From the NCBI GenBank assembly GCA_963662275.1, contig OY759316.1:3392001-3456000 (forward strand): DNA of 64,000 nucleotides, read 5' to 3'. Positions 6,084 to 60,545 of this stretch are shown in pieces; within the stretch, counting starts at the first letter, position 1, and each line of letters begins with the position of its first letter. This DNA comes from Candidatus Cloacimonadales bacterium. GTDB taxonomy: Bacteria; Cloacimonadota; Cloacimonadia; Cloacimonadales; DAONDQ01. Below the pieces are notes generated by a model. The model was given only the letters and a program-made list of their open reading frames with translations. It searched no databases and was not told the DNA's origin. The position numbers were made by a program, and so were the translations under genes.

Positions 6084-6124
6084 CCCCCCTACCCCCCTTG
6101 GGAAGGGGGGTAAGGGGGTCTAAT
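6084..6124. repeat. C/G-run palindromic repeat (CCCCCTACCCCCCTTGGGAAGGGGGGTAAGGGGG)
   Basis: Related copies at 40791-40826 and 40913-40942; weaker ones near 742-772 and 52743-52780. Confidence 0.7.
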
Positions 6125-6196
6125 CATCTTCCAAGTTGACATGAAACATGATTATCCTAATTTCGTAATCTCGTTAAATTAGCAATAGAGGTGTGT

Positions 6197-7003
6197 ATGA
6201 ATAAATCTGTAAAACAGCTCCAAATGGAGTCAAAGATCCTTAAAAGATTAAGTGGGAAACCGAAACAAGTGGCGGAACTAATCTTTGGGAATGAAGAACT
6301 GCAATTGATGCAGGAATATGCCAATGTGGTTTCTATCAAAAGATTGGGATATAATGATCATGGTCCTGTGCACATGCGCAAAGCGACCTATAATAGCATC
6401 AAAATGTTTGAATTACTCCGGGACGCAGGTGTAAAATTCAATTTGGAAGTAGAAGAAAGCGGTTCTGTAGATGACAGTATGGTATGCGTCATTATGGGTT
6501 CGATGCTGCATGACATTGGCATGTCGATTACTCGTGAAAGTCATGAACTATTAAGTATTCAACTAGCTGAACCGTATATCAATGCTATCATGGAACAAAT
6601 CTATACAAAGGAAGAATTACAAACGAAGATCGCTGTACGTTCTACTGTTTTGGAAAGCATCTTTGGTCATATGGCAACTCATGCAATTCATTCTTTAGAA
6701 GCAGGTCTTGTGCTTATTGGTGATGGCTCTGACATGGAAAGAGGAAGAGCAAGAATACCTTCCCTGTTAAATCTAACTCCAAAGGTTGGAGATATTCATC
6801 GGTATTCATCTTCTGCCATCCTGAAAGTGAAGATATCCAAAGGGGATGAAAAGCCCATCCGTATTGAAGTCGTCATGAGTGCATCAGTAGGCTTCTTCCA
6901 GATTGAAGAAGTATTCTTTCCAAAGATCAAATCCAGTCCTGTCAGACCCTACATCGAATTATACGCTGGTGTGGAAGATCGGGAAGTCCTTCGTTATTTA
7001 TAA
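6197..7003 (+). CDS. HD-superfamily metal-dependent phosphohydrolase
   Basis: YNDHGPVH, MLHDIG, GHM and DGSDM motifs. Confidence 0.85.
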   Translation: MNKSVKQLQMESKILKRLSGKPKQVAELIFGNEELQLMQEYANVVSIKRLGYNDHGPVHMRKATYNSIKMFELLRDAGVKFNLEVEESGSVDDSMVCVIMGSMLHDIGMSITRESHELLSIQLAEPYINAIMEQIYTKEELQTKIAVRSTVLESIFGHMATHAIHSLEAGLVLIGDGSDMERGRARIPSLLNLTPKVGDIHRYSSSAILKVKISKGDEKPIRIEVVMSASVGFFQIEEVFFPKIKSSPVRPYIELYAGVEDREVLRYL

Positions 7004-16651: not shown

Positions 16652-18545
16652 GGAGGTGTCCCGTAACTAGCATTAATCTATTTGCTTATTTTGTAAAATA
16701 TATGATTGTTTTTAGATGTACACTAAATTACTCAATAGTTTCCGAAAAGCGATGCAAAGACAAGGAAAATGGAGTAATATTTACCTAATTCATGTTTGAA
16801 TTCTGGTAGGAAGAGTCTTCATTAGGCTTTTCCTTCAGTATTTTGTAAGTGTAGAAACATTTTCCCTATATTATGTCCTAAAAAGAGGAGGGATAACTGT
16901 TCCTTGCATTTTCTCAATGAACGGACAGTAAATCTCTCAAACTTCCTGTTCCACTTCATGAAAGCAAATACAGCCTCCGGTTCGATGCCTCTTTGCTTTC
17001 TCAGCTTGTCGCCTTTTTCAGAAAGCAGATTATTGACGGTCTGACGTTTTAGGGGAGCTATATGAGGATCGTAGGTCAGCAATTTATGAGTTTTATCCTT
17101 GTAGGGAATACACTTTTTATTGTGAGGACATTCTATGCAGTCATTACATATATAGGTTTTCACGATTCGTTTCGGACCGTTCTTCTCTGTCTCTTCTTCC
17201 TTGATTTTGACCAGTCTCCGATTAAATTGACAGCCCCACTCATCATGCTCCTCATCATAGCTAAAGCCTGTCAGAAGAGAGTCCCGATAATCTCTCTTAT
17301 AATCCTGGGTCTTGAGATAGCTTGTTATCTCTTTTTCAGCAGCATAATTCAAATTCAGCGCAGTGCCATAGGCAGCATCTCCAACAACGTCGGTAGGATA
17401 TTGTCCCAATTCATCATGCATTTGCTCCATGAGATTGGGAAATTCAACGGTTTCTTTAGGGATATTGAATAAGTGAATGCCTGTGACAAATTGCTCTGAA
17501 GTTCCGATACTGGCAACATAACCCGGTGCCAGCTGTCCATTTTTCAATCGCATAAATGTGGCATCATTATCAGTCTTGGATGTGCTGCTGCGTCCTTCTC
17601 CAATTATCTCAAGCTGTTGCTCATATTTCTCCAGCTTAGTTATATCATTGCTCTTTGATTTGGAGATTTCGCGCAAAAGAGATTTGATTTTCTTGATAGC
17701 CCGAGTATCTGACGGATGATTTTTCTGTAGTCGGGACATTGCTTCTTTCAGCTTGTTTTCTGCTGAGACCAGTCTATCTCTGATCTGTTCAGATGCGACT
17801 GTAGCAGTTTTCTCTGATTCAACCGCATGCAATTGCTCACCAAGCTCAAGAAGATCAGCGGTTCCATATTGCTGTTGCTCTTCCTGATTATATTCCTCGA
17901 TCTTTTTAAACAATCCCTCAACTCGTGTCTTGACCAGTTCCTGATAACGAAGCGCATTGCTTTTCCAGATGTAGGAATTCTTGCCGGCATTTGCGTGAAT
18001 CGTCGTCCCGTCAACAAAACAGGTGTCGAGATCAAGATATCCTAATGATGATGCTTTCAGTACTACCTGATAAAATACATCAATAAGAATATCAGAACAC
18101 TTAGTCCAGGCAAAGGTGTTGATCGTTCTGAAATCAGGTTCCTGTTCTCCTGCCAGCCAGATAAAATTGATGTTCTCCCGAACAGCCTTAGCTATCTTCC
18201 GACAGGTATAAATACCATTGATATAGGCGTATACAATGATCTTCAACATCATCTTGGGATGATAAGCAGGTGTACCTTCATCAGAGTATCTTGAGTATAG
18301 CTCAGTTAAGTCCAGTTGCTCAATGATATCGTTAACATAACGAACCATATGTTTGGGGGGTATTTTTTCGCTTATATTAAGCCCGAAAAGAGTACCCTGA
18401 TCCGGGTTGTGTTCTCTGAAATTCATAGTGTCTCTCTATACTTAGTTTTTAAAGGCAATAATACACCATAGAACAATATGTCAAGATATATAACTAATTA
18501 TTTAATAGTTGCTATTTTTCTATCATTTAGTTTCGGGACATCTCC
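16652..18545 (-). mobile_element. IS1182-family insertion sequence
   Basis: Terminal IRs GGAGGTGTCCCGTAACTA / TAGTTTCGGGACATCTCC; no clear TSD. Confidence 0.85.
16822..18426 (-). CDS. IS1182-family transposase
   Basis: YHPKMMLK, PDFRTI, VDGTTIHANA, SKTDNDATFMR, DAAYG, EPEAVF. Confidence 0.92.
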   Translation of the reverse strand: MNFREHNPDQGTLFGLNISEKIPPKHMVRYVNDIIEQLDLTELYSRYSDEGTPAYHPKMMLKIIVYAYINGIYTCRKIAKAVRENINFIWLAGEQEPDFRTINTFAWTKCSDILIDVFYQVVLKASSLGYLDLDTCFVDGTTIHANAGKNSYIWKSNALRYQELVKTRVEGLFKKIEEYNQEEQQQYGTADLLELGEQLHAVESEKTATVASEQIRDRLVSAENKLKEAMSRLQKNHPSDTRAIKKIKSLLREISKSKSNDITKLEKYEQQLEIIGEGRSSTSKTDNDATFMRLKNGQLAPGYVASIGTSEQFVTGIHLFNIPKETVEFPNLMEQMHDELGQYPTDVVGDAAYGTALNLNYAAEKEITSYLKTQDYKRDYRDSLLTGFSYDEEHDEWGCQFNRRLVKIKEEETEKNGPKRIVKTYICNDCIECPHNKKCIPYKDKTHKLLTYDPHIAPLKRQTVNNLLSEKGDKLRKQRGIEPEAVFAFMKWNRKFERFTVRSLRKCKEQLSLLFLGHNIGKMFLHLQNTEGKA

Positions 18546-18552
18546 GACACAG

Positions 18553-19056
18553 TTATGTTTGAAAAAACGTCGTTGGTATTTTTCTTCCATCCACGCTCTC
18601 TTCTATCTCATTCAAATGAGACGATCCTATTGATTTGGCCATTATCACTTCATCTGCAAGATTAGCAATTATTTCATTCCTGATTCGGGAACTAGCCTTA
18701 TCGGGACGTCTTACTTTATCTGAGAAATTGGAAATGATCAGCATTCTTCCTGAATTGAGAGCTTGTTTCCAGTTTGGGGGTATGCGCATATTTATGATAG
18801 AACGGGCAGGGAAAATGATGACTGGTGAATTTCCGCGTAGGAGTGTTAGTAAGCATTCTTTTTCAAGAGGTGATTGAAAACCACTGAGAATGGTGGCTTC
18901 GGCATCTCGTAATCTTACTATTTCATCTAATGTCTTAAGGATTACACTCGCCTGGCAGTGGTTGGAACAGAATATGGCTATTTTATGATTAGTTATTAAA
19001 TCAGGATTACCAACGTATTCGAATAAAAGCCCTTGAATTATGATTTGAGAAGGCAT
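18553..19056 (-). CDS. Short DprA/SMF-like SLOG-superfamily protein
   Basis: IAIFCS, ILSGFQSPLEK, RNEIIANLAD; lacks the SAM and wHTH domains of full DprA. Confidence 0.75.
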   Translation of the reverse strand: MPSQIIIQGLLFEYVGNPDLITNHKIAIFCSNHCQASVILKTLDEIVRLRDAEATILSGFQSPLEKECLLTLLRGNSPVIIFPARSIINMRIPPNWKQALNSGRMLIISNFSDKVRRPDKASSRIRNEIIANLADEVIMAKSIGSSHLNEIEESVDGRKIPTTFFQT

Positions 19057-19111
19057 GATTTATCCCTCCTATCCCAACTAACCAAATATGAGAACTCTTT
19101 AAAGAGAAGTC

Positions 19112-20026
19112 CTATTTCTTTTCAAAAGACTTGAGTGTAAATCTTGGTTTACCTTCTCCAACTACTTTTGATTCAACCACAATGTAAAGTTCTTTTTCTA
19201 AATAGTGATTGATTTCCATAGGGTCTACGATTTGTGAACCGACACGCCCTTTGATAACTTCTTGAGTAGGGGAGTGCACAAATTCAAATGTTCTTGATTT
19301 TGGAAGTACACCAATGAATTGACCTGCAAGTGTAATCTCAGTATCAGTGATATTATCAGTGTTAATACGGGCTGCACTTCTTTTCACTTGCTCTTCATCA
19401 TGGAATGTGAAATATTTATCATCTACTTCCAATGCACAGTAAGCATTATTTTCTACAAGTGTATGAAGGAATTCATGAAATTGTTTTACCGTTCGATCAT
19501 CAATCTCAGCCATAGCATCAGATAATTCTTCATCCGTTCCTAAAGAAGCTTCCAGTAATTTCTGTGCTTTTTCAATAGCTTTCTCCAAAATTGACGGGTT
19601 TTCATTTAGATTCACATGTGTTTGATCTATGTTCTCTTCCAATTCAAACCCAAATGAACCCAACGCAGTCCCTGTAATTATGAGCTGATAATTATCTGCA
19701 TTAGTAATCACACCACGATTTCCGGAGGTATTCCCTTCCAGGTTTGAAGCAATGGAAACTACTGCATCAGCGAATTTATTTACAGCTTTTGCTCCAAAGC
19801 CAGCTAAAATACCAAAACTCCCAACAACAGGTTTTCCCCTGAAAGTAATAATCGCATGGGCTGGTTCTCGCATAGAAGTCTTAACACTGTCTAGTTCTGA
19901 CTGTATTTCATCCAATCTGATTTCAAAATTAGCACGATTTATTACCTTATCAGAAGAAATGTGTTCTAATTGATTAAGCAGGTATATCTTCTCTGCTTCT
20001 AAATGCTTATATTCGCGTGCTCTCAT
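19112..20026 (-). CDS. Hypothetical protein (N-terminal helical hairpin, GTALGSFGFEL motif, C-terminal OB-like region)
   Basis: 304-aa ORF with AGGAG RBS, 11 bp after the upstream gene. Confidence 0.8.
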   Translation of the reverse strand: MRAREYKHLEAEKIYLLNQLEHISSDKVINRANFEIRLDEIQSELDSVKTSMREPAHAIITFRGKPVVGSFGILAGFGAKAVNKFADAVVSIASNLEGNTSGNRGVITNADNYQLIITGTALGSFGFELEENIDQTHVNLNENPSILEKAIEKAQKLLEASLGTDEELSDAMAEIDDRTVKQFHEFLHTLVENNAYCALEVDDKYFTFHDEEQVKRSAARINTDNITDTEITLAGQFIGVLPKSRTFEFVHSPTQEVIKGRVGSQIVDPMEINHYLEKELYIVVESKVVGEGKPRFTLKSFEKK

Positions 20027-20037
20027 GATTAAACTCC

Positions 20038-20649
20038 TTATAACAAATTAAGGTCATTCTCGAGCTTGTCAAGAAATTCCACTGCTTTTACATCATCGTT
20101 CGGAGTGAGTTCAATTTCGATAAAACCTTTCCAGATAAGAGTATCTCGTTGATGTGACCAAAGACTATACCAATATGCGGTTTGGTCGATCAACGACTTA
20201 ATAACTGCTTTATTGTCAATTTCGATGGGTTCATGATAAGCGTCAACCAGGTAAGTTTGTTTCAATTGATTATGAAAAACACGTTGGAATAAAAAGGGAT
20301 TGGAGTTTACAACATCCTGCTGTGTTTGATTTTTTTTGAGATAAAAAAAAGTAACAACATCAATATCATTGGGTGCTTCATCAGAGATTAATTCTTTTCG
20401 TGTTACAAAACTGCCATTCAGCCACTGAAAGCCATCATTAATTCCTATTTTGTGCAATTCGGCTCGATAGTTTATAAAACCTTTCAAAATTTGAATTCTC
20501 TCATGCAATTTTAAATTAAGTCCTATTTGTGTAAAGTACTGTATGAAATCCAATAAAGACATTTTATAAGGAGATCTGTCTCCACTCGGTGGGTTAATTA
20601 AATCAATTGGTGGTATTAATCCTGCTTGATTCCATTGTGCTAATGACAT
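20038..20649 (-). CDS. DUF6932-like Pol-beta superfamily nucleotidyltransferase
   Basis: WLNGSFVT..E...PNDIDVV (GS + DxD), later VDAY; C-terminal R...KGFIEI. Confidence 0.75.
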   Translation of the reverse strand: MSLAQWNQAGLIPPIDLINPPSGDRSPYKMSLLDFIQYFTQIGLNLKLHERIQILKGFINYRAELHKIGINDGFQWLNGSFVTRKELISDEAPNDIDVVTFFYLKKNQTQQDVVNSNPFLFQRVFHNQLKQTYLVDAYHEPIEIDNKAVIKSLIDQTAYWYSLWSHQRDTLIWKGFIEIELTPNDDVKAVEFLDKLENDLNLL

Positions 20650-20797
20650 ACTACCCCCCTATAATCAAACTTCCTTAGCATAAATACGTTGCTGATCATA
20701 ATAACTTTGCATCACTTACCCCCACAATATCATCTAATTTATCGTGAAAAGTTACGCTGTCAATATAAATCTACTCATGTAATCATTCTTTAACATA

Positions 20798-22658
20798 GAG
20801 ACTGTTCAAAATTAACCTCCATTTTACGCAGCCTTATTGGTAGTGACAGAGAAAAAGTGGTCTAAGTGCGACCAATCCACATTTTCTTGACATATGCGGG
20901 AGATATTTAAACTTGCTAAAAGTGATTCCTGACGCATGATTGGTTGACCTTTATCGACCAGTTCTTTGAACCAAAGCGAAAACACAAGGTTGCGGGTGGT
21001 TTCTTCAGATTTTAGTCCAAATCTACCGGATGTCACCTTCTTGATTTTGCGGTTCCAGCGTTCAGAGACATTGGAAGTCAAACCTTTGCTGAGGTGTCTC
21101 CAATCACTAATGATATTGCTTTTGATGTATTCGGCGGCGGTTGGGGGAGTAATAGCTGTCAGGCTTGCGATACCCTTTTTCCTTCCGCCCGCCGTTTCTC
21201 TTCGGAAAGCTTTCATAATCCTCTTCTTAAAGAACTTGTCCCTGTCTTCAGGGAGATGACATTGACTGATTCTTTTGAAGAGATTTCGTATCTTATGGAA
21301 CTTACAGAGTTGGTAATGGACTTTTGGAAACACTGTTTTTCTTGCAACTGCTAACGATTTACTGCCATCACTGACAATCAGGGTTGGATCTTTCCTGTAG
21401 AGCTGTCTGAAGGTTCTGAAACATGCTTCGAATGATTCTTTCTTTGTGTCAGGATACAACTCACAAAACAGAGGGATGTGAGTCACAAAATCAACAATAC
21501 TGATGACATAGTACGGAATACCTTTGATCTTCACATATTTCTCATCAATGCTGATCTTTCCGCTCCACTTACCGATTGAGTTCAGAATCAGGCTCTGCAG
21601 GTCAGCGATTTCATGCCAGAGATTTGAGACTGTAGCTTTACAGGTGTTGAGCAGCAAAGCTATCGTCTCGAAGTTCATACCGCTTCCAACCAGGTAATGT
21701 ACCAGCAGACACAGGTTCTTGCGTTCCAGACTATGGAACGGCTTTGCATCGGCGGTTCTATGGGATGTATTGCCTTTAGCAGTCTTCATTTGTTCCAGGA
21801 GTCTGTCACAGATAACAGGTGTATTCTGCTGACCGGCAAGCAGTTTCAGCAGATGTACAGCATCACCGCCTACTGTCTTTTTCAGAAGAAGCTTCTGAGC
21901 TTGCTTAACTACAGACAGAGAATTGACCTGAGAAGCATATTTGCAGAAAGTGGTATAGGACATTTTAAAATCATGATGGCTGATGAACTCCTGATACATG
22001 ACATTTAAAGGTAAAAGCAGGTTATTGATAACAAAATTCTCGATCTGAGGAATACACTCCAGCAGGTCAACTTTCCGGCTTAAATATGCCAGGATATCAT
22101 GACCATGCTGCTCAAACTCTTGCCAGAAATTATGTACATTCCTGCGGTCTGCGTAGTTAAACAGATCAGCTATTTGCTGAAGTGTAAGGAGGTTGTCTCC
22201 GCCTATTCCTACTAATAAGCGTAGAAACGCTATTAAGAACTTGTGGTTTGATGTTGTCTCAGGCAAAGTGAATGAAAATGGTACGTTAATACTTACATGG
22301 TATTGGTTACTTTCATGACTAACACTTACCGCTTCTTGAATTGGAGTGTTTTTTTGTCATAATATCCTCCCTTTTGTTACCAGGTAACAAATGCCATTGA
22401 AGCTATAGCAAAAAACTTGTAAAGAACTATTTTATATGATTTTAACTACACATTTAGTCAGAAACGGCTTCGAAACATTACTTATAATCGCGTGTTTTTC
22501 AATTTTAGTCAAAAAGCTTAACTTGTGATTTGGTGTCCTTAGCAGAGCTTATCTGTCAATTCTGGAAGGTATGTTAAATTATGACCGTTTCGACCACTTT
22601 TTTCAACTTGCTACTTTCTAACTTATTGAATATTATGAATAACTTCATGAACAGTCTC
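20798..22658 (-). mobile_element. 1861-bp IS (IS256/Mutator-like), copy 1
   Basis: TIR GAGACTGTTCA...TGAACAGTCTC; 8-bp TSD TTAACATA. Confidence 0.92.
20824..22266 (-). CDS. DDE transposase (true start probably ATG 22360 via +1 frameshift)
   Basis: SIDEKYVKIKG, IVSDG, YQLCKFH (Mutator/IS256-type CxxH), TSNVSERWN. Confidence 0.85.
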   Translation of the reverse strand: MPETTSNHKFLIAFLRLLVGIGGDNLLTLQQIADLFNYADRRNVHNFWQEFEQHGHDILAYLSRKVDLLECIPQIENFVINNLLLPLNVMYQEFISHHDFKMSYTTFCKYASQVNSLSVVKQAQKLLLKKTVGGDAVHLLKLLAGQQNTPVICDRLLEQMKTAKGNTSHRTADAKPFHSLERKNLCLLVHYLVGSGMNFETIALLLNTCKATVSNLWHEIADLQSLILNSIGKWSGKISIDEKYVKIKGIPYYVISIVDFVTHIPLFCELYPDTKKESFEACFRTFRQLYRKDPTLIVSDGSKSLAVARKTVFPKVHYQLCKFHKIRNLFKRISQCHLPEDRDKFFKKRIMKAFRRETAGGRKKGIASLTAITPPTAAEYIKSNIISDWRHLSKGLTSNVSERWNRKIKKVTSGRFGLKSEETTRNLVFSLWFKELVDKGQPIMRQESLLASLNISRICQENVDWSHLDHFFSVTTNKAA

Positions 22659-22691: not shown

Positions 22692-22900
22692 TTACTTTTT
22701 CTTTAATCTACTTTTAATCGCATCTTCTGCCAGCTTCAACACATCCTTATACTCTACACCGAAAGGTTTGAGAAGATTAGCTGAACCATGTATTGCACTG
22801 CTAAATTCGCCAACAGCTTCACCCACGGTCTTATCAATACCTGCAGCTTCAATTTCTTCAGATGTATATTGATAATACAAAAGGACGATATCTTCTACCT
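22692..22900 (-). pseudogene. 3' fragment of an unknown gene abutting the terminal CRISPR repeat
   Basis: Open frame VEDIVLLYY...KSRLKKK whose 5' end runs into the repeat; no independent start or RBS. Confidence 0.45.
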
Positions 22901-23171
22901 TGGCACCAAAGCTCTTTGACTTAGTACGCACAGTCTAAAGATAAATCATATTACGTTGTTACAGCTTGACACCAAAGCTCTTTGACTTAGTACTGTTGGC
23001 TATTACAGGCTTTCGAGGTTTAGGTTACAGCTTGACACCAAAGCTCTTTGACTTAGTACAAAAGCGATGCAATCATTGATGGTGATCTGGTTACAGCTTG
23101 ACACCAAAGCTCTTTGACTTAGTACTATGCTATTGATCAGGCTGCTCTAATTGCGGTTACAGCTTGACACC
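22892..23171 (+). CRISPR. CRISPR array, cas-distal segment (1 degenerate + 3 full repeats + half repeat; 4 spacers)
   Basis: 36-bp repeat GTTACAGCTTGACACCAAAGCTCTTTGACTTAGTAC at 22958, 23024, 23090; 30-nt spacers. Confidence 0.95.
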
Positions 23172-23393: not shown

Positions 23394-24149
23394 CTATTTT
23401 CTATTGATTTGTTTTATTCCCTTGCGTTCTCTCATTGACATCTTCCCATCGATAAATATATGGTGAGAGTTATGAACAAGCCGGTCAAGGATGGCATCAG
23501 CGAGAGTGGGTTGTCCAATCTTCTCGTGCCATCCTCCGGTTTTGAACTGAGAGCACAAGACCGTAGATGCTTTGGAATACCTCATCTCGACTATTTCAAA
23601 GAGATCTTTAGCTTCCTGTTCGTTTATCCTGGTTAACAGCCATTCATCAAGTATCAGCAGTTTAGCATTGGCATATCTGTCTATGACTCTTTGATGCCCG
23701 CCTTCACAACGACTAACAGCGAGGTCATCCAACAGTTCAGGCAGGCGGACGTATTTTACAGTGAAGTATTTCTTGCAGGCAGCTATGCCAAATGCGCAAG
23801 CCAGCCATGTTTTACCGCTTCCCGATGCTCCGGTGATGATGATATTCTCATTCTCTCCAATAAAAGAACATGACGCCAATTCAACGATTGCACTACGATC
23901 AAGTTTCCTGTCTTCATGGTAGTCAATATCTGCTATACTCGCATTACTGAACTTGAAGCCGGCACCGTGAATCAGACGTTTAAGCCTATTATTCTTGCGC
24001 TTATCCCATTCTATATCAACCAGCATGCCAAAGCGCTCGTCAAAGCTGTAGTTTTCCAGTGATTTATCGTTAACCTGATTTCGGTAGGCATCTGCCATGC
24101 CATTTAACAGCATCTCTCGAAGTTTAATGATAGTAGTATTATTAGTCAT
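23394..24149 (-). CDS. istB: IS21 helper ATPase IstB
   Basis: GASGSGKT, LLILDEW, DAILDRLVHNS; ATG overlaps the istA stop. Confidence 0.93.
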   Translation of the reverse strand: MTNNTTIIKLREMLLNGMADAYRNQVNDKSLENYSFDERFGMLVDIEWDKRKNNRLKRLIHGAGFKFSNASIADIDYHEDRKLDRSAIVELASCSFIGENENIIITGASGSGKTWLACAFGIAACKKYFTVKYVRLPELLDDLAVSRCEGGHQRVIDRYANAKLLILDEWLLTRINEQEAKDLFEIVEMRYSKASTVLCSQFKTGGWHEKIGQPTLADAILDRLVHNSHHIFIDGKMSMRERKGIKQINRK

Positions 24150-24496
24150 TTTCGTTTCTCCCGTAGTAACCTGATTCCCGGCTGATGGCATACTCTGAGC
24201 TTTGCACCGCTTCAGCATCATTATCGGTGCTTCTCTTCTGTTCATTTGAGTTTAGAATAGTCTTGATGATTCTGTAACTCGGATTTGGCGTATAGCTTAA
24301 TGCTCGTTGACAGGCACTTTCCAAATTTTGACAGCCATACTTTTTTGAAGCGCTTAGCACAGCCATGCAAGTGCGATAACCTTGCTGTTCAACCCTGCAT
24401 GATCCCAGGATTGACTTGATTACCAACTCAGTGCTTGTTCCAATAGTACAAGCCCAGTCAACAAAACTTTCTGCATCCCATTTACGGTATTCCTGA

Positions 24497-26357
24497 GAGA
24501 CTGTTCAAAATTAACCTCCATTTTATGCAGCCTTATTGGTACTGACAGAGAAAAAGTGGTCTAAGTGCGACCAGTCCACATTTTCTTGACATATCCGAGA
24601 GATATTTAAACTGGCTAAAAGCGATTCCTGACGCAGGATTGGTTGTCCTTTATCGACCAGTTCTTTGAACCAAAGCGAAAACACAAGGTTGCGAGTGGTT
24701 TCTTCAGATTTTAGACCAAATCTGCCGGATGTCACTTTCTTGATTTTGCGGTTCCAGCGTTCAGAGACATTGGAAGTCAAACCTTTGCTGAGGTGTCTCC
24801 AATCACTAATGATATTGCTTTTGATGTATTCGGCGGCGGTTGGGGGAGTAATAGCTGTCAGGCTTGAGATACCCTTTTTCCTTCCGCCCGCCGTTTCTCT
24901 TCGGAAAGCTTTCATAATCCTCTTCTTAAAGAACTTGTCTCCCTCTTCAGGGAGATGACATTGACTGATTCTTTTGAAGAGGTTTCGTATTTTATGGAAT
25001 TTGCAGAGCTGATAATGGACTTTGGGAAACACGGTTTTTCTGGCAGCCGCTAATGCTTTACTGCCATCACTGACAACCAGGATAGGATCTTTTCTATAGA
25101 GCTGTCTGAAGGTTCTGAAACATGCTTCGAATGATTCTTTCTTTGTGTCAGGATACAACTCACAAAATAGAGGGATGTGAGTCACAAAATCCACAATACT
25201 GATGACATAGTACGGAATACCTTTGATCTTCACATATTTCTCATCAATGCTGATCTTTCCGCTCCACTTACCGATTGAGTTCAGAATCAGGCTCTGCAAA
25301 TCACCGATTTCATGCCAGAGATTTGAGACTGTAGCTTTACAGGTGTTGAGCAGCAAAGCTATTGTCTCGAAGTTCATACCGCTTCCAACCAGGTAATGCA
25401 CAAGCAGACACAGGTTCTTGCGTTCCAGACTATGGAATGGCTTTGAATCGGCTATTCTATGCGATGCATTGCCTTTAGCAGTCTTCATTTGTTCCAGGAG
25501 TCTGTCACAGATAACAGGTGTATTTTGCTGACCGGCAAGCAGTTTCAGTAGATGTACAGCATCACTGCCTACTGTCTTTTTCAGAAGAAGCTTCTGAGCT
25601 TGCTTAACCACAGACAGGACATTGATCTGAGAAGCATATTTGCAGAAAGTGGCATACGACATTTGAAAATCATGATGGCTGATGAACTCCTGATACATTA
25701 CATTTAAAGGTAAAAGCAGGTTATCGATAACAAAACTCTCGATCTGAGGAATACACTCCAGCAGGTCAACTTTCCGGCTCAGATACGCCAGAATATCTTT
25801 GCCATGTTGCTCAAACTCCTGCCAGAAATTATGCACATTCCTGCGGTCTGCATAGTTAAACAGATTAGCTATTTGCTGAAATGTGAGAAGATTGCCTCCG
25901 TTTATTCCTGTTATTAAGCGGAGGAATACCATTAAAAACTTGTGGTTGGATGTCGTTTCAGGCAAACAAAATGAACATGGTACGTTAATACTTACATGGT
26001 ATTGGTTACTTTCATGACTGACACTTACAGCTTCTTGAATTGGAGTGTTTTTTTGTCATAATATCCTCCCTTTTGTTACCAGGTAACAAATGCCATTGAA
26101 GCTATAGCAATAAACTTGTAAAGAACTATTTTATATACTTTTAGATACACTTATAGTCAATAGTGGAGTCGAAAAATTACTTACTATCGCTTATCTTTTG
26201 CTTTTAATCAAAAAGCTTAGCTTGAGAGTTTGGGTTATAGGAGATGCCGATATGTCAATTCTGGAAGTGATATCAAATTATGATCGTTTCGACCACTTTT
26301 CGCAACTTGATACTTCCTAACTTATTGTATATTATGAATAAATGCCTGAACAGTCTC
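24497..26357 (-). mobile_element. 1861-bp IS, diverged copy 2, nested in istA
   Basis: Same TIRs; TSD ATTCCTGA. Confidence 0.92.
24523..25965 (-). CDS. DDE transposase (isoform of copies 1 and 3)
   Basis: 480 aa with scattered substitutions relative to copy 1. Confidence 0.85.
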   Translation of the reverse strand: MPETTSNHKFLMVFLRLITGINGGNLLTFQQIANLFNYADRRNVHNFWQEFEQHGKDILAYLSRKVDLLECIPQIESFVIDNLLLPLNVMYQEFISHHDFQMSYATFCKYASQINVLSVVKQAQKLLLKKTVGSDAVHLLKLLAGQQNTPVICDRLLEQMKTAKGNASHRIADSKPFHSLERKNLCLLVHYLVGSGMNFETIALLLNTCKATVSNLWHEIGDLQSLILNSIGKWSGKISIDEKYVKIKGIPYYVISIVDFVTHIPLFCELYPDTKKESFEACFRTFRQLYRKDPILVVSDGSKALAAARKTVFPKVHYQLCKFHKIRNLFKRISQCHLPEEGDKFFKKRIMKAFRRETAGGRKKGISSLTAITPPTAAEYIKSNIISDWRHLSKGLTSNVSERWNRKIKKVTSGRFGLKSEETTRNLVFSLWFKELVDKGQPILRQESLLASLNISRICQENVDWSHLDHFFSVSTNKAA

Positions 26358-27730
26358 ATTCCTGATGATCCCTGGGCATATGCTCGGCATTGGTCTGATA
26401 TCGCTCAGAGTTTCCCTCCAAGCCCCTGGGGGAGGCTATTCTGACTGAATTGTAAAAGACCTCCACCACCCTGGCGGTTAGGCGAATATCCACTTTGTGG
26501 TGGATATATTCATAAGGCACTGAATAATACTTCTTATCAACCATAATGTGATAGTTGTAACCAACCGTTGCTGTAGCCCATGTAGCCAGTTCATAAGCCG
26601 CCTCCGGCAAGGGAAGCAGCTGCTCTCGTTCTTCTTGCCAAAATACGCTTTCACGGGAGCCATCTTTGACCTGGAAAGGCTGAAAGGCTTACTGTTAAAT
26701 TCAGCCAACTTTTCCCTGATTGCCTTATTGAGTTCTCTAAGCGAGAAGAAACTCCTGTTGCGAAGAGCAGCCAGAATCCAGGTCGAGATAATACCTACTG
26801 TCCCTTCAGCACTTGCCTTATCCTTGGGATGCCTGACCCTGGCAGGGATGACCACTGTATTGTAGTAATTAGCCAGTTCATTATATGTCCTGTTGATTAC
26901 ACTGCCTCCACTGGATACCCGCTCCACACCAGTCTTGAGGTTGTCAGGTACCAGTATTTTTGCCACTCCGCTCATATATTGAAAACAGTTTACATGAGCC
27001 TGAATCCAGTTACACAGACTCATATTGGGAAGTGCTTCAACATAAGCATAGCCACTATAGGGCAAAACAGCGACAAAGACTGGAACTTTAAGCTGTGCCC
27101 CGGTAAGATTGTTTGTCAAATACGCAGATTGACCTGCCCAATCAACCTCAAGCTTCTCACCCGGCTTGTGATGAATGCGCATGGTTGCCTTGGTTTGATG
27201 AGCATATTCCGTGTAAAGCTCGCAGAATCGACTGTATTGATAGGGTATCGTCTGATTCTGACGGCATAACTCCGAATATTCATGCCATAACAACGACAAG
27301 GTTACACCGCTTTTACCCAATTCCTTGTGAATATGCTCAAAATCAGGCATCCTGCGACAACCTTCGATATTTACAATGGGAAATAGCATCTTCCCCAATT
27401 CCCTGTCACTAATTGTATCAGAAATTGGACAGAAAACAGCTTGTTGGGCTGCTGCCCTCAGCACCTTGGATACGGTATTGCGGGAGCACGGCAGGCTTTG
27501 AGCAATATTCCTTTCACTAATTCCTTGCGCCTGTAAACGCAAGATTTCTCGATAATTGGTCATTTTGTGACCTCCATTGTGTTATTTGCGCTCTTCAGCG
27601 CATTGCCACATGGTTAATCACACTCTGATTTATGCAAGGTGGCTCAAAGTAGAATATTCCCTGGCTCAATTATAGTGGAGCACTGGCTCAACTTGGGAAT
27701 ACTCATGGCTCAAATTCATAATATTATTCA

Positions 27731-28746
27731 ACACCAAAGCTCTTTGACTTAGTACGGCATGTGGGCAGTCCACTAGTGGATAGTAGTTACAGCTTGACAC
27801 CAAAGCTCTTTGACTTAGTACCACCAGTACCATATGGCCATAAACGAACTGGTTACAGCTTGACACCAAAGCTCTTTGACTTAGTATTGATGCCAGTAAT
27901 TCAGTGTTGGCTTTCATGTTACAGCTTGACACCAAAGCTCTTTGACTTAGTACTGCCGATTTGGAAGAGATCAGGCAGAAGGAGTTACAGCTTGACACCA
28001 AAGCTCTTTGACTTAGTACAATAAAACAGCTTACGTCCCTCGTGGTGCTGTTACAGCTTGACACCAAAGCTCTTTGACTTAGTACCTTCGTGTCACGCGA
28101 TAAGATTGCTGATACGTTACAGCTTGACACCAAAGCTCTTTGACTTAGTACTAACGCCGACATTTCAACGTGACCTGCGCAGTTACAGCTTGACACCAAA
28201 GCTCTTTGACTTAGTACATGTAGTTTTGAATTACCTAACCATCCCATGTTACAGCTTGACACCAAAGCTCTTTGACTTAGTACAAGCCGTTCTGGATACT
28301 TCACAAGGTGGCAGTTACAGCTTGACACCAAAGCTCTTTGACTTAGTACAATTCCCTTGTACTTGGAAATGTGACAACCGTTACAGCTTGACACCAAAGC
28401 TCTTTGACTTAGTACACGAATTGATTGTAATACCTTATCTTTACTGTTACAGCTTGACACCAAAGCTCTTTGACTTAGTACGGTTTTACCGTTTCCGGTA
28501 TCACCGTAAATGTTACAGCTTGACACCAAAGCTCTTTGACTTAGTACTTTGGTTTGTCTGTTTCCATGCAGCGATAGGTTACAGCTTGACACCAAAGCTC
28601 TTTGACTTAGTACCTCAGGTCACCACCCTTCATGATAAGTACCTGTTACAGCTTGACACCAAAGCTCTTTGACTTAGTACAAGACCGGCTATATCCATAC
28701 AGATCCATTGGTTACAGCTTGACACCAAAGCTCTTTGACTTAGTAC
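27731..28746 (+). CRISPR. CRISPR array, cas-proximal segment (half repeat + 15 full repeats; 15 spacers)
   Basis: 66-bp period (one 31-nt spacer at 28614-28644); orientation inferred from tracrRNA complementarity. Confidence 0.97.
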
Positions 28747-28752
28747 TAAGCC

Positions 28753-28785
28753 GTCCTAACCTATCAAAATATGATAGGTTAGGAC
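28753..28785. terminator. 14-bp perfect hairpin between array and cas2
   Basis: GTCCTAACCTATCA-AAATA-TGATAGGTTAGGAC. Confidence 0.65.
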
Positions 28786-28809
28786 ATTTTATCTGCAAGA
28801 AAAGTGGCG

Positions 28810-29145
28810 TTATGAGTCTTCAAAAAGCAGTAATTGTTCAGGATTTGTTTTTTCTCGGGTCTTCTTTTTGTTAAGAAGATGTACGATATCTCCAAATTGT
28901 TTGTCTGTAAATTCGATGATACTGACTTTCCCTTTTTCAGGAATATTAGTTTCAATTCGATTGTGTAAACTTTCGGTTCTTTCTCTTGTTCCACAGAATC
29001 TGGCATAGACAGAGAATTGACACATCTGAAACCCCTCCTTTTCCAGAAAGTGCCTGAATTTATTCGCTTTTTTCCTATCTGATGCAGATACAACAGGCAG
29101 ATCAAACATAACCATCATCCACATGAGTCTATATGCGCTTAACAT
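28810..29145 (-). CDS. cas2: CRISPR-associated Cas2 (type II)
   Basis: MWMMVMFDLPV, GFQMCQFSVYAR. Confidence 0.95.
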   Translation of the reverse strand: MLSAYRLMWMMVMFDLPVVSASDRKKANKFRHFLEKEGFQMCQFSVYARFCGTRERTESLHNRIETNIPEKGKVSIIEFTDKQFGDIVHLLNKKKTREKTNPEQLLLFEDS

Positions 29146-30018: not shown

Positions 30019-33000
30019 TTATTCCTTTTTTGGGTCAAAGACTCTGCCAAGAATATCTATTCCAGCTTTAGCAGCTTGCATTTGTAGTAATTGATTTGCA
30101 CTATATTTTTCCCCAATATCTTCTGAGCCCTTTTCCTTTTTTGCAGTGTTTAATTCTCTTAAGAATATCCTACCTTGGCTAAATTTCCTTACCCTCTTAA
30201 ATTCTCTTTTTCCTTTTTCGTTTGTAAACACGACGATATCGTTTTTATAAAGTCGCATAATTAATTTACCCATTGGGAATTCGTTTTTCCAGTCAGGAGT
30301 AAAATTACTCTTATGGGCTTTGAAACTGTTTACTACCAAATCCTTCCATTTTGATTTTGAATCAAACGGCTTTGGATTGTAAATATCGATAAACAGATTT
30401 TCATCTGAACAATAGTATTTGAATATATTGCCTTGCTTATCTTTTATAGGGATTAAGTTATTGGGATTGAGTTTACTCATGGTTTTCACTTTTTTCACGT
30501 TATGCTTCGTTGCCCAAGTTTTAACAGCCTGTTTGAATTCATCTTTCGATATATCTTTTCTGACAAAATCCATTAAAACATCTTGAATTGGCTGAGATAC
30601 TACTTCAAGTATTTGCTTTTCTGTTTCTAAGCTCATAATATCTACTTTGGAGGTGAAATATGCAAATTTCGAGTCATTAGTGTCAGTATGATGGAAAAAT
30701 AAAGCTGTTTCCTGCATCAAAGCACCTGCAGTCTGGTTTCTGGTAGCTAAAAGAGATGGATTCGGTTGGTCAGGTTTGAAAGAAACTTTGATTTGATCTA
30801 CTTTCTCTTTCACCATATCTAGATTAAATCCGTTCCAGGGGTATGGCATCTTTCCAATATATCTATCATCGCTAAAGCGCACAGCATCAGCATACTTCTT
30901 TACGATACTCCTCGAAGTGAAAGCAATTACCAAAGCATCAATTGCATGATGTCGATGGTCAGTTCTTTCTTTTTCGTTGGTTTCGCTTAAGATTGAATTC
31001 AATCCCCAATATCTTCTCAGTTTTGCTGTCAGTTGTCCAGCAGGACACCAGATATTATTACTACCGCATACATAACTGAGATAAGCTTTAGTTGAACGTG
31101 ACATATATCTTGTATCATTCAACATTCTTCCAAGAACAACTGCTTCATCTGCAAAACGTTCCATAGCATTAACCTGGAAACGCCATTTCTTATTATCAGG
31201 CAATTTATGTGCTCTCTCTAAGATCATCTCCCAAGAATAGCCATCATGGCTTTGCCCAAAGGCTTCATGTGGGCTTCTTTCTTTTTTATATTCGTTAGCT
31301 TGATGATAACAAAGAATCTTATTAGAGACGCTATCATCAAAAGTTCTGGATTTAGGAAGAATGTGATCAATCTGAACTTGTGGTTGATATAAGTTTGCTG
31401 CAGTTATTTGATTGCCTGAATAAACACAACATCTTTCTAAAGGATTTGAGGACATTTCTTCCCATAATTTGAACTTCAAACGGTTTTCACCATTGTTTTC
31501 AATATTCAGTTTTGCCAATTCTAAAGATATTCTCTCATTGGTTTTCGTATTCTTATTAATTTGCTTATTTATTTCTTTTTTCTGTTCTTCATTGAGTTTC
31601 AAATCACGCGCAAGCTCGATTACTATTTCTTTCGGTGCACCGTATTGAGAGCATAAAGCATTCAATATCTTACGTACCTGGTTCAAAGCAATGTGAACAG
31701 TCGGATTATTGATCTTACCGAATAGATCTGCATCTACATCATTTGAAATGCGTGCTAATGGCAATACACTACCTGGTAGTAACTCACCGTAATATGGTAA
31801 ATCACCTTTACAATAAGTAGGTTCGGTTGCGATGCCACTATGTTTGTATCCTGCTTCTATGCATGCCTCTGAGTAATTTAATCCTGCTTTCATATGAGAA
31901 ATTAGCTTTTGTAAGGCTTTCATACTCAAATTTCCATAGCTAAAGGGTAATTTGGCATTGAAAACTGAATTTGTTTCATCTGAAGTCAATCCCAAATTAT
32001 GCAATTTGATTTGTATTTCTTCATCGGAATCATCAGAAAGAAGTATATCTATGATGTTTATTTTCTTTTGTTCGCTCAACGAATCATATATGTTTTTAAG
32101 CTTCACTTTCAAAGCATGATAAGATTCATTTCCAAGTAACTTGGTTTTATTTTCACTTTCGAGATTAAATCTGTAGCAGTCAGTATCTTTTTTCCTAATT
32201 AAAGCTCGAACTTTTGGATAGTCTTTTTTATCACAAACATTCATTACATTGAATATTAGATTTCTCTCCTCCTGTGTAAGATCGATGACCTCACCTGTTG
32301 TTATATCAATTAACTCAAGGTTATTTATTTCCTGAAGAAGCCTGAATTCCTGGAAGAAGGGATGTGCTCTGTGAATTCTATCCTCTGTTGGTTCTAAATA
32401 ACATTTTCCTTTGATAGTTGGCTTTAAAGGTCTTTGAGTGAATATGACTTTATATATCTCATCTTTCAAAGAATCTGATAATTCTTTGTGATATTGTCTT
32501 TGAGTATTCCAAAGAGTATTAAATTCGTTTTCTATCATCTCACGAGTAGGAAATATCTTTTCATCAGCAATATCTGATTCGTATCTGAATTTGGTTGGTT
32601 TCTTATGATGTTGGTCATTGAGATTGACTTTACAATTTATGTTCCATAAATATTCGCCGATTGTGCGTACTTTTGTTTCAGTTAGTTTGTGTTGTAGATT
32701 TGATATAGCATCAGATATCTTTGTTCCTTTTTCTTGTGCATTCTCTTTTCTGTTACTCTTAAAGCCTCTTCTTTTTGCTAAATGTATGAAAGCTCGAGAA
32801 ATCTCATAAAGAGTAATTTCTTTATCTAAAGCTCTATGCCTTATTTCAAGAGGGTCTTGCATAAAGAGAGAAGTTCTCTCCTTTTCATTCTGTGGTAGAA
32901 GAGAATGAGCATCTAAGCAATTCAATAATTGTTCCCTGCGTAGAAGATAGCGATCAAGATTCTTTCGGATAGAACGATAGTTTCTTCTTTTTACACTCAA

Positions 33001-33162
33001 GGGTTCTTTAGTTTTGTCATCTCTGCCATCAGGGAATATACGTACACCCATTTTGATAATATCAATCGGATTATCATTTGAATCCAGTTTAAGCATGCAC
33101 CATCCGATAGAAGTAGAACCCATATCGATACCAAGTCTGTAATTTTCTTTAGTTACTTTCAT
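30019..33162 (-). CDS. cas9: Type II-C Cas9, 1047 aa
   Basis: RuvC-I LGIDMGSTSIGW, Arg-rich bridge helix, IELAR, HNH IDHILP, HHAIDA; no csn2 or cas4. Confidence 0.97.
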   Translation of the reverse strand: MKVTKENYRLGIDMGSTSIGWCMLKLDSNDNPIDIIKMGVRIFPDGRDDKTKEPLSVKRRNYRSIRKNLDRYLLRREQLLNCLDAHSLLPQNEKERTSLFMQDPLEIRHRALDKEITLYEISRAFIHLAKRRGFKSNRKENAQEKGTKISDAISNLQHKLTETKVRTIGEYLWNINCKVNLNDQHHKKPTKFRYESDIADEKIFPTREMIENEFNTLWNTQRQYHKELSDSLKDEIYKVIFTQRPLKPTIKGKCYLEPTEDRIHRAHPFFQEFRLLQEINNLELIDITTGEVIDLTQEERNLIFNVMNVCDKKDYPKVRALIRKKDTDCYRFNLESENKTKLLGNESYHALKVKLKNIYDSLSEQKKINIIDILLSDDSDEEIQIKLHNLGLTSDETNSVFNAKLPFSYGNLSMKALQKLISHMKAGLNYSEACIEAGYKHSGIATEPTYCKGDLPYYGELLPGSVLPLARISNDVDADLFGKINNPTVHIALNQVRKILNALCSQYGAPKEIVIELARDLKLNEEQKKEINKQINKNTKTNERISLELAKLNIENNGENRLKFKLWEEMSSNPLERCCVYSGNQITAANLYQPQVQIDHILPKSRTFDDSVSNKILCYHQANEYKKERSPHEAFGQSHDGYSWEMILERAHKLPDNKKWRFQVNAMERFADEAVVLGRMLNDTRYMSRSTKAYLSYVCGSNNIWCPAGQLTAKLRRYWGLNSILSETNEKERTDHRHHAIDALVIAFTSRSIVKKYADAVRFSDDRYIGKMPYPWNGFNLDMVKEKVDQIKVSFKPDQPNPSLLATRNQTAGALMQETALFFHHTDTNDSKFAYFTSKVDIMSLETEKQILEVVSQPIQDVLMDFVRKDISKDEFKQAVKTWATKHNVKKVKTMSKLNPNNLIPIKDKQGNIFKYYCSDENLFIDIYNPKPFDSKSKWKDLVVNSFKAHKSNFTPDWKNEFPMGKLIMRLYKNDIVVFTNEKGKREFKRVRKFSQGRIFLRELNTAKKEKGSEDIGEKYSANQLLQMQAAKAGIDILGRVFDPKKE

Positions 33163-58684: not shown

Positions 58685-60545
58685 GAGACTGTTCAAAATT
58701 AACCTCCATTTTACGCAGCCTTATTGGTAGTGACAGAGAAAAAGTGGTCTAAGTGCGACCAATCCACATTTTCTTGACATATGCGGGAGATATTTAAACT
58801 TGCTAAAAGTGATTCCTGACGCATGATTGGTTGACCTTTATCGACCAGTTCTTTGAACCAAAGCGAAAACACAAGGTTGCGGGTGGTTTCTTCAGATTTT
58901 AGTCCAAATCTACCGGATGTCACCTTCTTGATTTTGCGGTTCCAGCGTTCAGAGACATTGGAAGTCAAACCTTTGCTGAGGTGTCTCCAATCACTAATGA
59001 TATTGCTTTTGATGTATTCGGCGGCGGTTGGGGGAGTAATAGCTGTCAGGCTTGCGATACCCTTTTTCCTTCCGCCCGCCGTTTCTCTTCGGAAAGCTTT
59101 CATAATCCTCTTCTTAAAGAACTTGTCCCTGTCTTCAGGGAGATGACATTGACTGATTCTTTTGAAGAGATTTCGTATCTTATGGAACTTACAGAGTTGG
59201 TAATGGACTTTTGGAAACACTGTTTTTCTTGCAACTGCTAACGATTTACTGCCATCACTGACAATCAGGGTTGGATCTTTCCTGTAGAGCTGTCTGAAGG
59301 TTCTGAAACATGCTTCGAATGATTCTTTCTTTGTGTCAGGATACAACTCACAAAACAGAGGGATGTGAGTCACAAAATCAACAATACTGATGACATAGTA
59401 CGGAATACCTTTGATCTTCACATATTTCTCATCAATGCTGATCTTTCCGCTCCACTTACCGATTGAGTTCAGAATCAGGCTCTGCAGGTCAGCGATTTCA
59501 TGCCAGAGATTTGAGACTGTAGCTTTACAGGTGTTGAGCAGCAAAGCTATCGTCTCGAAGTTCATACCGCTTCCAACCAGGTAATGTACCAGCAGACACA
59601 GGTTCTTGCGTTCCAGACTATGGAACGGCTTTGCATCGGCGGTTCTATGGGATGTATTGCCTTTAGCAGTCTTCATTTGTTCCAGGAGTCTGTCACAGAT
59701 AACAGGTGTATTCTGCTGACCGGCAAGCAGTTTCAGCAGATGTACAGCATCACCGCCTACTGTCTTTTTCAGAAGAAGCTTCTGAGCTTGCTTAACTACA
59801 GACAGAGAATTGACCTGAGAAGCATATTTGCAGAAAGTGGTATAGGACATTTTAAAATCATGATGGCTGATGAACTCCTGATACATGACATTTAAAGGTA
59901 AAAGCAGGTTATTGATAACAAAATTCTCGATCTGAGGAATACACTCCAGCAGGTCAACTTTCCGGCTTAAATATGCCAGGATATCATGACCATGCTGCTC
60001 AAACTCTTGCCAGAAATTATGTACATTCCTGCGGTCTGCGTAGTTAAACAGATCAGCTATTTGCTGAAGTGTAAGGAGGTTGTCTCCGCCTATTCCTACT
60101 AATAAGCGTAGAAACGCTATTAAGAACTTGTGGTTTGATGTTGTCTCAGGCAAAGTGAATGAAAATGGTACGTTAATACTTACATGGTATTGGTTACTTT
60201 CATGACTAACACTTACCGCTTCTTGAATTGGAGTGTTTTTTTGTCATAATATCCTCCCTTTTGTTACCAGGTAACAAATGCCATTGAAGCTATAGCAAAA
60301 AACTTGTAAAGAACTATTTTATATGATTTTAACTACACATTTAGTCAGAAACGGCTTCGAAACATTACTTATAATCGCGTGTTTTTCAATTTTAGTCAAA
60401 AAGCTTAACTTGTGATTTGGTGTCCTTAGCAGAGCTTATCTGTCAATTCTGGAAGGTATGTTAAATTATGACCGTTTCGACCACTTTTTTCAACTTGCTA
60501 CTTTCTAACTTATTGAATATTATGAATAACTTCATGAACAGTCTC
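58685..60545 (-). mobile_element. 1861-bp IS, copy 3 (apparently identical to copy 1)
   Basis: Same TIRs; TSD TTGAAAGC. Confidence 0.92.
58711..60153 (-). CDS. DDE transposase
   Basis: Translation identical to 20824-22266. Confidence 0.85.
   Translation of the reverse strand: MPETTSNHKFLIAFLRLLVGIGGDNLLTLQQIADLFNYADRRNVHNFWQEFEQHGHDILAYLSRKVDLLECIPQIENFVINNLLLPLNVMYQEFISHHDFKMSYTTFCKYASQVNSLSVVKQAQKLLLKKTVGGDAVHLLKLLAGQQNTPVICDRLLEQMKTAKGNTSHRTADAKPFHSLERKNLCLLVHYLVGSGMNFETIALLLNTCKATVSNLWHEIADLQSLILNSIGKWSGKISIDEKYVKIKGIPYYVISIVDFVTHIPLFCELYPDTKKESFEACFRTFRQLYRKDPTLIVSDGSKSLAVARKTVFPKVHYQLCKFHKIRNLFKRISQCHLPEDRDKFFKKRIMKAFRRETAGGRKKGIASLTAITPPTAAEYIKSNIISDWRHLSKGLTSNVSERWNRKIKKVTSGRFGLKSEETTRNLVFSLWFKELVDKGQPIMRQESLLASLNISRICQENVDWSHLDHFFSVTTNKAA

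Follow-up and report, generated by a model that had tools for sequence, protein, structure and literature searches.

A widespread DUF6932-OB-fold gene pair, probably anti-phage, and an apparently separate DprA-like gene behind it in a Cloacimonadales genome

Do three closely spaced genes on one strand, set between insertion sequences (ISs) and not far from a CRISPR-Cas9 locus, make up a single defence system? The question arises in the genome of a Candidatus Cloacimonadales bacterium (assembly GCA_963662275.1, contig OY759316.1, positions 3,392,001 to 3,456,000); this whole stretch of 64,000 nucleotides we call the window. Gene A encodes a DUF6932 protein resembling minimal nucleotidyltransferases (NTases) of the Pol-beta type, gene B a partner with an OB fold, and gene C a small DprA-like (SLOG) protein. 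A first-pass annotation, made from the sequence alone, had proposed the three as one operon of an undescribed defence or toxin-antitoxin system. The three open reading frames (ORFs) are present as it described them, all on the minus strand, with 11 bp between A and B and 55 bp between B and C, and a GGAG-type ribosome-binding site stands ahead of each. The three-gene unit itself fared worse: the SLOG gene never co-occurred with the pair, being found in 0 of 84 other A-B loci, and there was no credible A or B in 37 loci centred on C-like genes. The reading that we favour, and hold to be probable though well short of certain, is of two units joined by adjacency: A-B, a toxin-antitoxin-like or abortive-infection-type anti-phage module, and C, a separate DprA-like gene.

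The A-B pair is a conserved, translationally coupled and horizontally mobile two-gene cassette. Scanning species-representative genomes with an alignment of B gave at least 205 relatives, and the 80 loci that we kept span many bacterial phyla as well as the archaea Methanothrix and Methanoculleus. Directly upstream of B there was an A-like match in 78 of these 80 loci (tblastn), and A was essentially whole, judged by the residues covered, in 69 of the 77 loci that had enough upstream DNA. The stop codon of A and the start codon of B overlapped by 4 nt in 36 of the 47 loci scored. Viral contigs of IMG/VR held six full A-B loci and one partial locus; a tblastn search with B of 50,697 GenBank phage records returned no match. 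Within the window's own order, four of 200 further genomes had B, whereas the one sharing its genus did not. In eight of the 77 loci (L014, L030, L039, L041, L052, L065, L067 and L077) A was degraded or absent and B full length.

Two individual loci may be recorded here. In L052 hsdS is followed at once by a full-length B (6001-6867) with no trace of A, and then come a DarT-DarG pair and hsdR. In the closest relative (L121, G121:C71:27401-27817, in the region of L001/L104) the DUF6932 gene has two TGA codons in frame inside the family match, and its alignment is confined to residues 48-196; either a pseudogene or a later start could account for this.

The partner of the DUF6932 gene is not always of the window's B family. 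Six of the 232 genomes of the window's phylum have DUF6932; five of these carry the B family behind it, and one has a different, overlapping partner of 316 aa. The latter pair (L119), which adjoins hsdR, is nearer to the PADLOC PDC-M63 models (E 1.5e-19 for its first protein, A', and 1.2e-6 for its second, B'). Within a gammaproteobacterial order, DUF6932 occurred in 18 of 401 genomes, and these 18 together with five loci fetched earlier form a DUF6932-centred sample of 23 loci. The next gene downstream encoded a partner of 301-335 aa in 15 of them: 11 fell into the cluster of the window's B, three into a second cluster (326-335 aa), and the last was the partner in L119. Inspection of the ORF table showed that L131 has an A of 133 aa followed by a B-family ORF of 355 aa, and two of the 23 loci had no downstream ORF. 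With L131 and L133 both assigned to the B family from the ORF tables, the count of partners of roughly 300-335 aa rises to 17 of 23. The enzyme is thus what stays constant, and its partner, at about 300 aa, can be exchanged. In the clustering, a further partner family is found in L133, L137, L139, L140 and L147; that of L133 is a 477-aa ORF cut by the locus end, which clusters with the four short ORFs (129-156 aa) of the others.

Gene C, on the same kind of comparison, appears to be a separate passenger and not a conserved member of the pair. A hidden Markov model of the C family, built from 129 homologues and recovering 17 of 17 positive controls, gave no match at E <= 1 among the six-frame ORFs of the 84 other A-B loci. 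The seven viral A-B loci of IMG/VR (six full, one partial) lack C as well. In the converse direction, neither A nor a credible B was found in 17 C-centred loci from the window's order and 20 from IMG/VR; two B-profile matches there, at E 0.0022, were taken as noise. Among the 200 other genomes of the order, C-like genes occurred in 17 and B in four, never in the same genome, and the genome of the same genus has neither.

What kind of protein C is can be seen from its matches. It aligns with PADLOC PsyrA at E 9.3e-11 (profile positions 122-249 of 398), with Pfam DNA_processg_A at E 6.6e-5 (22.6 bits, short of the cut-off of 29.6; positions 33-163 of 212) and with TIGR00732 at 16 bits (cut-off 191), and a profile of its family matches solved DprA structures at E 1.3e-5. 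At 167 aa and below both cut-offs it is not a canonical DprA, matches of that type in relatives being about 374-379 aa long. A search of 1.84 billion representatives gave 1354 homologues of C at E <= 1e-3, most of them stand-alone proteins of 140-260 aa; a few form the C-terminal part of proteins of 700-770 aa, for which we found no second Pfam domain and no PDB relative. C keeps the invariant residues of its own family. The description of it as a truncated SLOG protein thus holds in so far as it is DprA/SLOG-like and short beside DprA, and fails in that C is full length by the standard of its family.

C-like genes keep company of their own elsewhere. In the 17 loci of the window's order, six come just after the C-terminal part of a type IIG restriction-methylase (in one case with a small gene between) and five just before the N-terminal part of such an enzyme, so that type IIG restriction-modification (RM) genes abut 11 of the 17; two follow a PDC-S13/Bro-N protein, two follow a Schlafen-AlbA_2/HATPase_c_4 protein, and for the remaining two no defence gene was recognised nearby. 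Overlap of the C-like gene with the gene upstream is usual in these loci. In IMG/VR, six of 20 loci had, upstream of the C-like gene, an ORF that resembles these type IIG enzymes and is about 1,085-1,100 aa long; one of the six has the same sequence as a genome locus and so is not independent, and neighbours in the viral loci were labelled by BLAST to proteins already annotated. Few loci, most of them from one order, underlie this picture. Small stand-alone DprA-like genes adjoin type IIG restriction-methylase genes, some before and some after and often with an overlap, in L089-L095, L100, L101, L151-L154, L157 and L169. The literature searched held no description of such a pairing. Its recurrence suggests that some restriction systems bring their own helper for DNA repair or control, an idea likewise absent from that literature.

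For A, the family assignment is clear: it matches Pfam PF22014 (DUF6932) at E 1.9e-29 over profile positions 2-142 of 142 (103.3 bits, cut-off 27), PADLOC PDC-M63A at E 4.7e-11 (positions 34-150 of 152) and phrog_9194 at E 2.6e-26, and its matches in the ESM Atlas are DUF6932 clusters. Minimal NTases of the Pol-beta type share a signature of hG[GS] ... [DE]x[DE] ... and a third carboxylate, which A has in G79-S80, D95-x-D97 and D136. These residues, and with them the GS..DxD motif first noticed in the window, are invariant in 32 of 32 aligned A sequences (that of the window and 31 orthologues from related loci), as are an N-terminal RSPY and a C-terminal YW..WSH.R..WKG. A sequence profile of A yielded nothing usable among PDB sequences. 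With the AlphaFold2 model (pLDDT 86.2, pTM 0.85), minimal NTases ranked first in both Foldseek and VIA-align (2rff, HI0073 and MntA of HEPN-MNT), with weak scores: Foldseek E 0.015 and probability 0.87 for 2rff, VIA Z 4.8 with an rmsd of 4.2 over 105 residues, and Z 4.3 for 1no5. The assignment of A as a putative NTase rests mainly on the invariant motif; the fold support is consistent with it, not decisive.

Neither Pfam nor NCBIfam has a family for B. Its match to phrog_18731 (E 1.1e-65) spans the whole protein, each of its 380 homologues at E <= 1e-3 is annotated 'hypothetical', as are all of its clusters in the ESM Atlas, and its sequence profile found nothing usable among PDB sequences. 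The helical N-terminus and OB-like C-terminus originally read from its sequence are borne out by an AlphaFold2 model (pLDDT 87.3), which has a hairpin at residues 3-49, a central alpha/beta domain at 57-225 and an OB fold at 226-304; the invariant stretch TGTALGSFGFELEE occupies residues 118-131 within the central domain. No histidine is invariant across 34 aligned B sequences. The OB fold matches SilF/CusF, SSB, PriB and RecG with Z 8-9.9 overall, the VIA-align values being Z 9.4 for SilF, 8.5 for the SSB Rim1 and 8.0 for PriB and the RecG wedge. Among predicted viral structures, the model matched a DUF6575-annotated phage protein over its full length (Foldseek E 9.2e-13, 292 columns, TM 0.38), and two further phage proteins also match the whole model. 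The release factors RF1/RF2, which headed the Foldseek list against the PDB (E 1.4e-3), were rejected as a fold for B: with TM 0.17 and an rmsd of about 20 Å, the hit is a 3Di artefact of a multi-domain model.

The surroundings of A-B provide the defence context that had been suggested for the first two genes. We grouped 400 flanking ORFs (three per side) into 338 clusters and labelled representatives by hand, 147 by Pfam and 95 by PADLOC, one library each, leaving out singletons at position 3. The three largest clusters were HsdS (14 loci, mostly directly upstream), HsdM (11 loci) and HsdR (11 loci, downstream), and across unrelated phyla A-B sits inside type I RM operons, between hsdS and hsdR. 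By counts that carry no background control, 24 of 79 loci had a type I RM subunit within three genes of A-B, and 42 of 79 had at least one neighbour labelled as defence. Other neighbours include DarTG, Gabija, HmaA, GmrSD, Abi_2, type III RM, ABC-3C, SoFic and dGTPase.

The coordinates of the window's own features are collected in the table. The flanks had been given as IS1182 and a CRISPR-Cas9 locus, and both are in place, with several elements between the genes and Cas9: beyond the Mutator-type IS come a CRISPR fragment of four repeats, an IS21 element with a second Mutator-type IS inside it, the main array, cas2, cas1 and cas9. G+C content is alike throughout the A-B-C block (0.35-0.38) and lower than in the flanking ISs. 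The TTGACA-N16-TAAATT site proposed as the promoter is indeed there, within native DNA and outside the neighbouring Mutator-type IS (which ends near 20797); the region has nine promoter-like sites and its shuffles 9.5 +/- 2.7, which puts the site at chance level; on its own it carries no weight as evidence. Between 18300 and 21000 we called a single terminator-like site, at 20874-20858. The B-C spacer has neither a terminator-like nor a called promoter-like site. An imperfect palindrome of 23 nt at 19084-19117, 83% complementary and centred on CTCTTTAAAGAG, could be an operator or a processing site.

Features of the locus, in window coordinates
Feature	Coordinates	Strand	Remarks
Gene A	20038-20649	minus	DUF6932 protein, minimal Pol-beta-type nucleotidyltransferase-like, 203 aa
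Gene B	19112-20026	minus	304-aa partner: helical hairpin, central alpha/beta domain, C-terminal OB fold
Gene C	18553-19056	minus	Small stand-alone DprA-like (SLOG) protein, 167 aa
Promoter-like site TTGACA-N16-TAAATT, upstream of A	20763-20736	minus	10/12 consensus matches
B-C spacer, 55 bp	19057-19111	minus	With palindrome and ribosome-binding site of C
IS1182-type transposase, directly downstream of C	16822-18426	minus	Pfam DDE_Tnp_1_6, DUF772
Mutator-type IS, upstream of A promoter region	20797-22266	minus	480-aa transposase; Pfam MULE, Transposase_mut
Cas9 of type II CRISPR-Cas locus	30019-33162		cas1, cas2 alongside

Several further observations concern these flanking elements. The CRISPR array is in two parts about 4.5 kb apart, at 22892-23126 (the four repeats, at 66-bp spacing) and 27666-28874 (the main array). 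They are divided by IS21, with istB at 23394-24245 and istA fragments up to 27563, and the Mutator-type copy near 24496 interrupts the IS21. The two Mutator-type copies share a direct repeat (D1, 20797-21096 and 24496-24795, 96% identical). Three ORFs of 480 aa (20824-22266, 24523-25965 and 58711-60153) occur in the window; the first two are near-identical Mutator-type transposases and the third is alike in length. The genome of the same genus has 69% DNA identity to the window, and synteny stops at a transporter gene.

How might such a pair work? Given its invariant catalytic residues, A would be an active, small Pol-beta-type NTase with its catalytic residues all intact. The tight coupling of the two genes leads us to infer that A and B act, most likely, as one complex. 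B would be soluble and, to judge from its modelled OB fold, may bind a nucleic acid or present a substrate. Two modes are conceivable: A could modify B with a nucleotide, in the way that the antitoxin MntA modifies its HEPN toxin, or it could act on a nucleic-acid end held by the OB fold of B; toxins of the MenT/AbiEii type act on tRNA ends. Because B is intact where A has decayed, the harmful activity would more likely lie with A, and B would serve to neutralise or target it. C would have arrived behind A-B in the window's genome and is probably co-transcribed with the pair there, to judge from sequence alone. The company of C-like genes elsewhere would be in keeping with C as a DprA-like helper, one that holds self-inflicted DNA damage in check.

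Several points weigh against this picture. The loci with degraded A come from a sample selected on B, in which the opposite pattern of decay was sampled unfairly. The NTase fold matches of A (Foldseek E 0.015, VIA Z 4.8) are weak and lie under the level of reliability. The best OB matches of B are the metal chaperones SilF/CusF, tied with SSBs, so nucleic-acid binding by B is not established. The neighbourhood counts of 24 and 42 of 79 are uncontrolled, half Pfam-only and half PADLOC-only; in 37 of the 79 loci no neighbour was recognised as a defence gene, and housekeeping genes are common among the neighbours. The single experiment that we found in print on the related candidate PDC-M63AB, its deletion in E. 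coli NILS69, showed no defence (PMC12409345). The last two points belong equally to the reading of A-B as non-immune, namely an addiction (plain toxin-antitoxin) module or other accessory of mobile elements that rides along in islands with restriction genes, which the patchy distribution and the IS, prophage and island contexts would also suit. Insertion between hsdS and hsdR is nevertheless typical of defence cargo, type I RM recurs in unrelated phyla, and the neighbours also include DarTG, Gabija, Hma, GmrSD and Abi_2; the boundary between toxin-antitoxin and abortive infection is blurred anyway, and we regard a non-immune role as distinctly unlikely. A reversal of roles within the pair, with B the toxin and A the antitoxin, seems to us a minority possibility of slightly greater weight. 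Its models are HEPN-MNT, in which the NTase is the antitoxin (MntA being among the fold matches of A), and PD-T4-10, a validated toxin-antitoxin/abortive-infection pair of E. coli in which, as set out by Vassallo et al. (2022, PMC9519451), the toxicity of the second gene (of about 360 aa) is neutralised by the first. Gene order and the 4-bp overlap are as in PD-T4-10, and the DUF6575-annotated phage protein that the model of B resembles has the same annotation as PD-T4-10B. Against B as the toxin stand the eight loci in which it is full length beside a degraded or absent A, a state that a toxin should not tolerate; there is also no sequence kinship with PD-T4-10 (hhalign probability 0.9% for A2 against PD-T4-10A, over 10 columns, and 0.1% for A1 against PD-T4-10B), PD-T4-10A has no GS...DxD, and B has neither a HEPN match nor an invariant histidine.

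A further point weighs against the separateness of C: it begins only 55 bp after B with no terminator-like site between, and a local functional link is possible. This could be taken as far as a lineage-specific three-gene system, C having been recruited as antitoxin, sensor or DNA-repair helper in the way that ShosA serves ShosT. C is intact, on the same strand, with its own ribosome-binding site and no promoter-like site in the spacer; it shares the low G+C of the block; and almost every C-like gene elsewhere is coupled to a defence gene, often by overlap, a habit that a place behind A-B would fit. We think such a system unlikely all the same, though worth keeping in mind, for C is missing from the 84 other A-B loci and the seven viral ones, among them the closest A-B relatives in the same order (four genomes); the gap of 55 bp differs from the overlap usual between C-like genes and their partners; and three kinds of IS have rearranged the region so heavily that the adjacency may be accidental. 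Two units set side by side, A-B and C, accordingly stay our preferred reading of the locus.

Taken jointly, the observations could be drawn into a bolder proposal, which we offer tentatively and consider unlikely: a toxic DUF6932 NTase that nucleotidylates a nucleic acid presented by an exchangeable, restraining OB-fold partner of about 300 aa, and, besides it, a family of small DprA-like proteins serving as a portable antitoxin or as repair of self-inflicted damage. Such a protein would attach itself, ShosA-like, to defence genes that target DNA but are not related to one another, among them type IIG enzymes, PDC-S13, Schlafen-type ATPases and, in the window, the NTase pair, and would lie behind them. 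What can be said of DUF6932 and its partner is that they form a compact pair across many bacterial phyla and methanogenic archaea, repeatedly inside restriction operons. The published test of the related candidate was negative; the DxD motif, together with a prediction of which gene is toxic, makes A-B directly testable.

Comparison with named systems places the two units in different company. Signalling, one of the possibilities first raised, finds no counterpart among cyclic-nucleotide systems: at E <= 1 none of the PADLOC models of CBASS, Pycsar or Thoeris matches A, B or C, and CD-NTases appear among the fold matches of A with Z of 3.1-3.3 only. C recalls ShosTA/PsyrTA, which have a DprA-like component; it matches PsyrA, and some of its relatives match ShosA too. 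ShosA is described in the abstract of PMC11961720 as an antitoxin that binds DNA. C differs in spanning only the core of PsyrA (122-249 of 398) and in having no ShosA match at E <= 1; A and B match neither ShosT nor PsyrT (PADLOC, E <= 1) nor a Pfam phosphoribosyltransferase, the gene downstream of C encodes a transposase, and C-like genes elsewhere accompany type IIG RM, PDC-S13 and Schlafen-type genes.

A-B itself shares with HEPN-MNT (HepT-MntA) a probable minimal Pol-beta NTase core, MntA and HI0073 being among the best fold matches of A, and a two-gene operon in which the NTase comes first. HEPN toxins carry the motif Rx4-6H. B, in contrast, matches no HEPN family of Pfam at E <= 1, has no invariant histidine, and consists instead of a hairpin, an alpha/beta domain and an OB fold, and A bears the additional conserved N- and C-terminal motifs RSPY and YW..WSH.R..WKG. 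PD-T4-10, which we located in E. coli by a published primer, lies there in a prophage hotspot, with an overlap of 4 bp between the gene for a 171-aa hypothetical protein and that for a DUF6575 protein of 363 aa. Like A-B it has a small first gene running by a 4-bp overlap into a longer second one, on a mobile element in a defence hotspot. The resemblance of the B model to a DUF6575-annotated phage protein, of the PD-T4-10B family, is the sole link and is one of fold; Pfam DUF6575 is not among the matches of B at E <= 1. The missing GS...DxD of PD-T4-10A and the near-zero hhalign probabilities set the two apart, and the decay pattern of A-B speaks against B as a toxin. In the E. coli prophage hotspot (L123, 5258-7009) a gene of the AIPR family, which is of abortive-infection type, directly follows PD-T4-10, an instance of defence-gene stacking there.

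The literature searched makes no mention of DUF6932, and it describes no pair of an NTase and an OB-fold protein associated with type I RM or defence islands, the accessible part of PMC12839542 included. The nearest relative is PDC-M63, a computational candidate of PADLOC, with which A-B has in common the family of A (PDC-M63A, DUF6932), the arrangement as two co-directional, overlapping genes and a second protein of about 300 aa. The pair, not at first recognised as a named system, is thus not entirely without a name. The window's B is only just picked up by PDC-M63B (E 2.8e-3, over profile positions 35-202 of 309), none of four other B orthologues (L001, L045, L064 and L108) matches it, one of them weakly matching PDC-M32A, and hhalign of the B family against the PDC-M63B-like partner gave a probability of 0.2%. 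A search for the PDC-M63B family came back empty for the window's genome and for all 14 control genomes alike and is hence uninformative. A-B is a variant, not described before, of the PADLOC-listed candidate PDC-M63: a real and widespread pair of a putative NTase and an OB-fold protein that is, from its sequence and surroundings, probably anti-phage.

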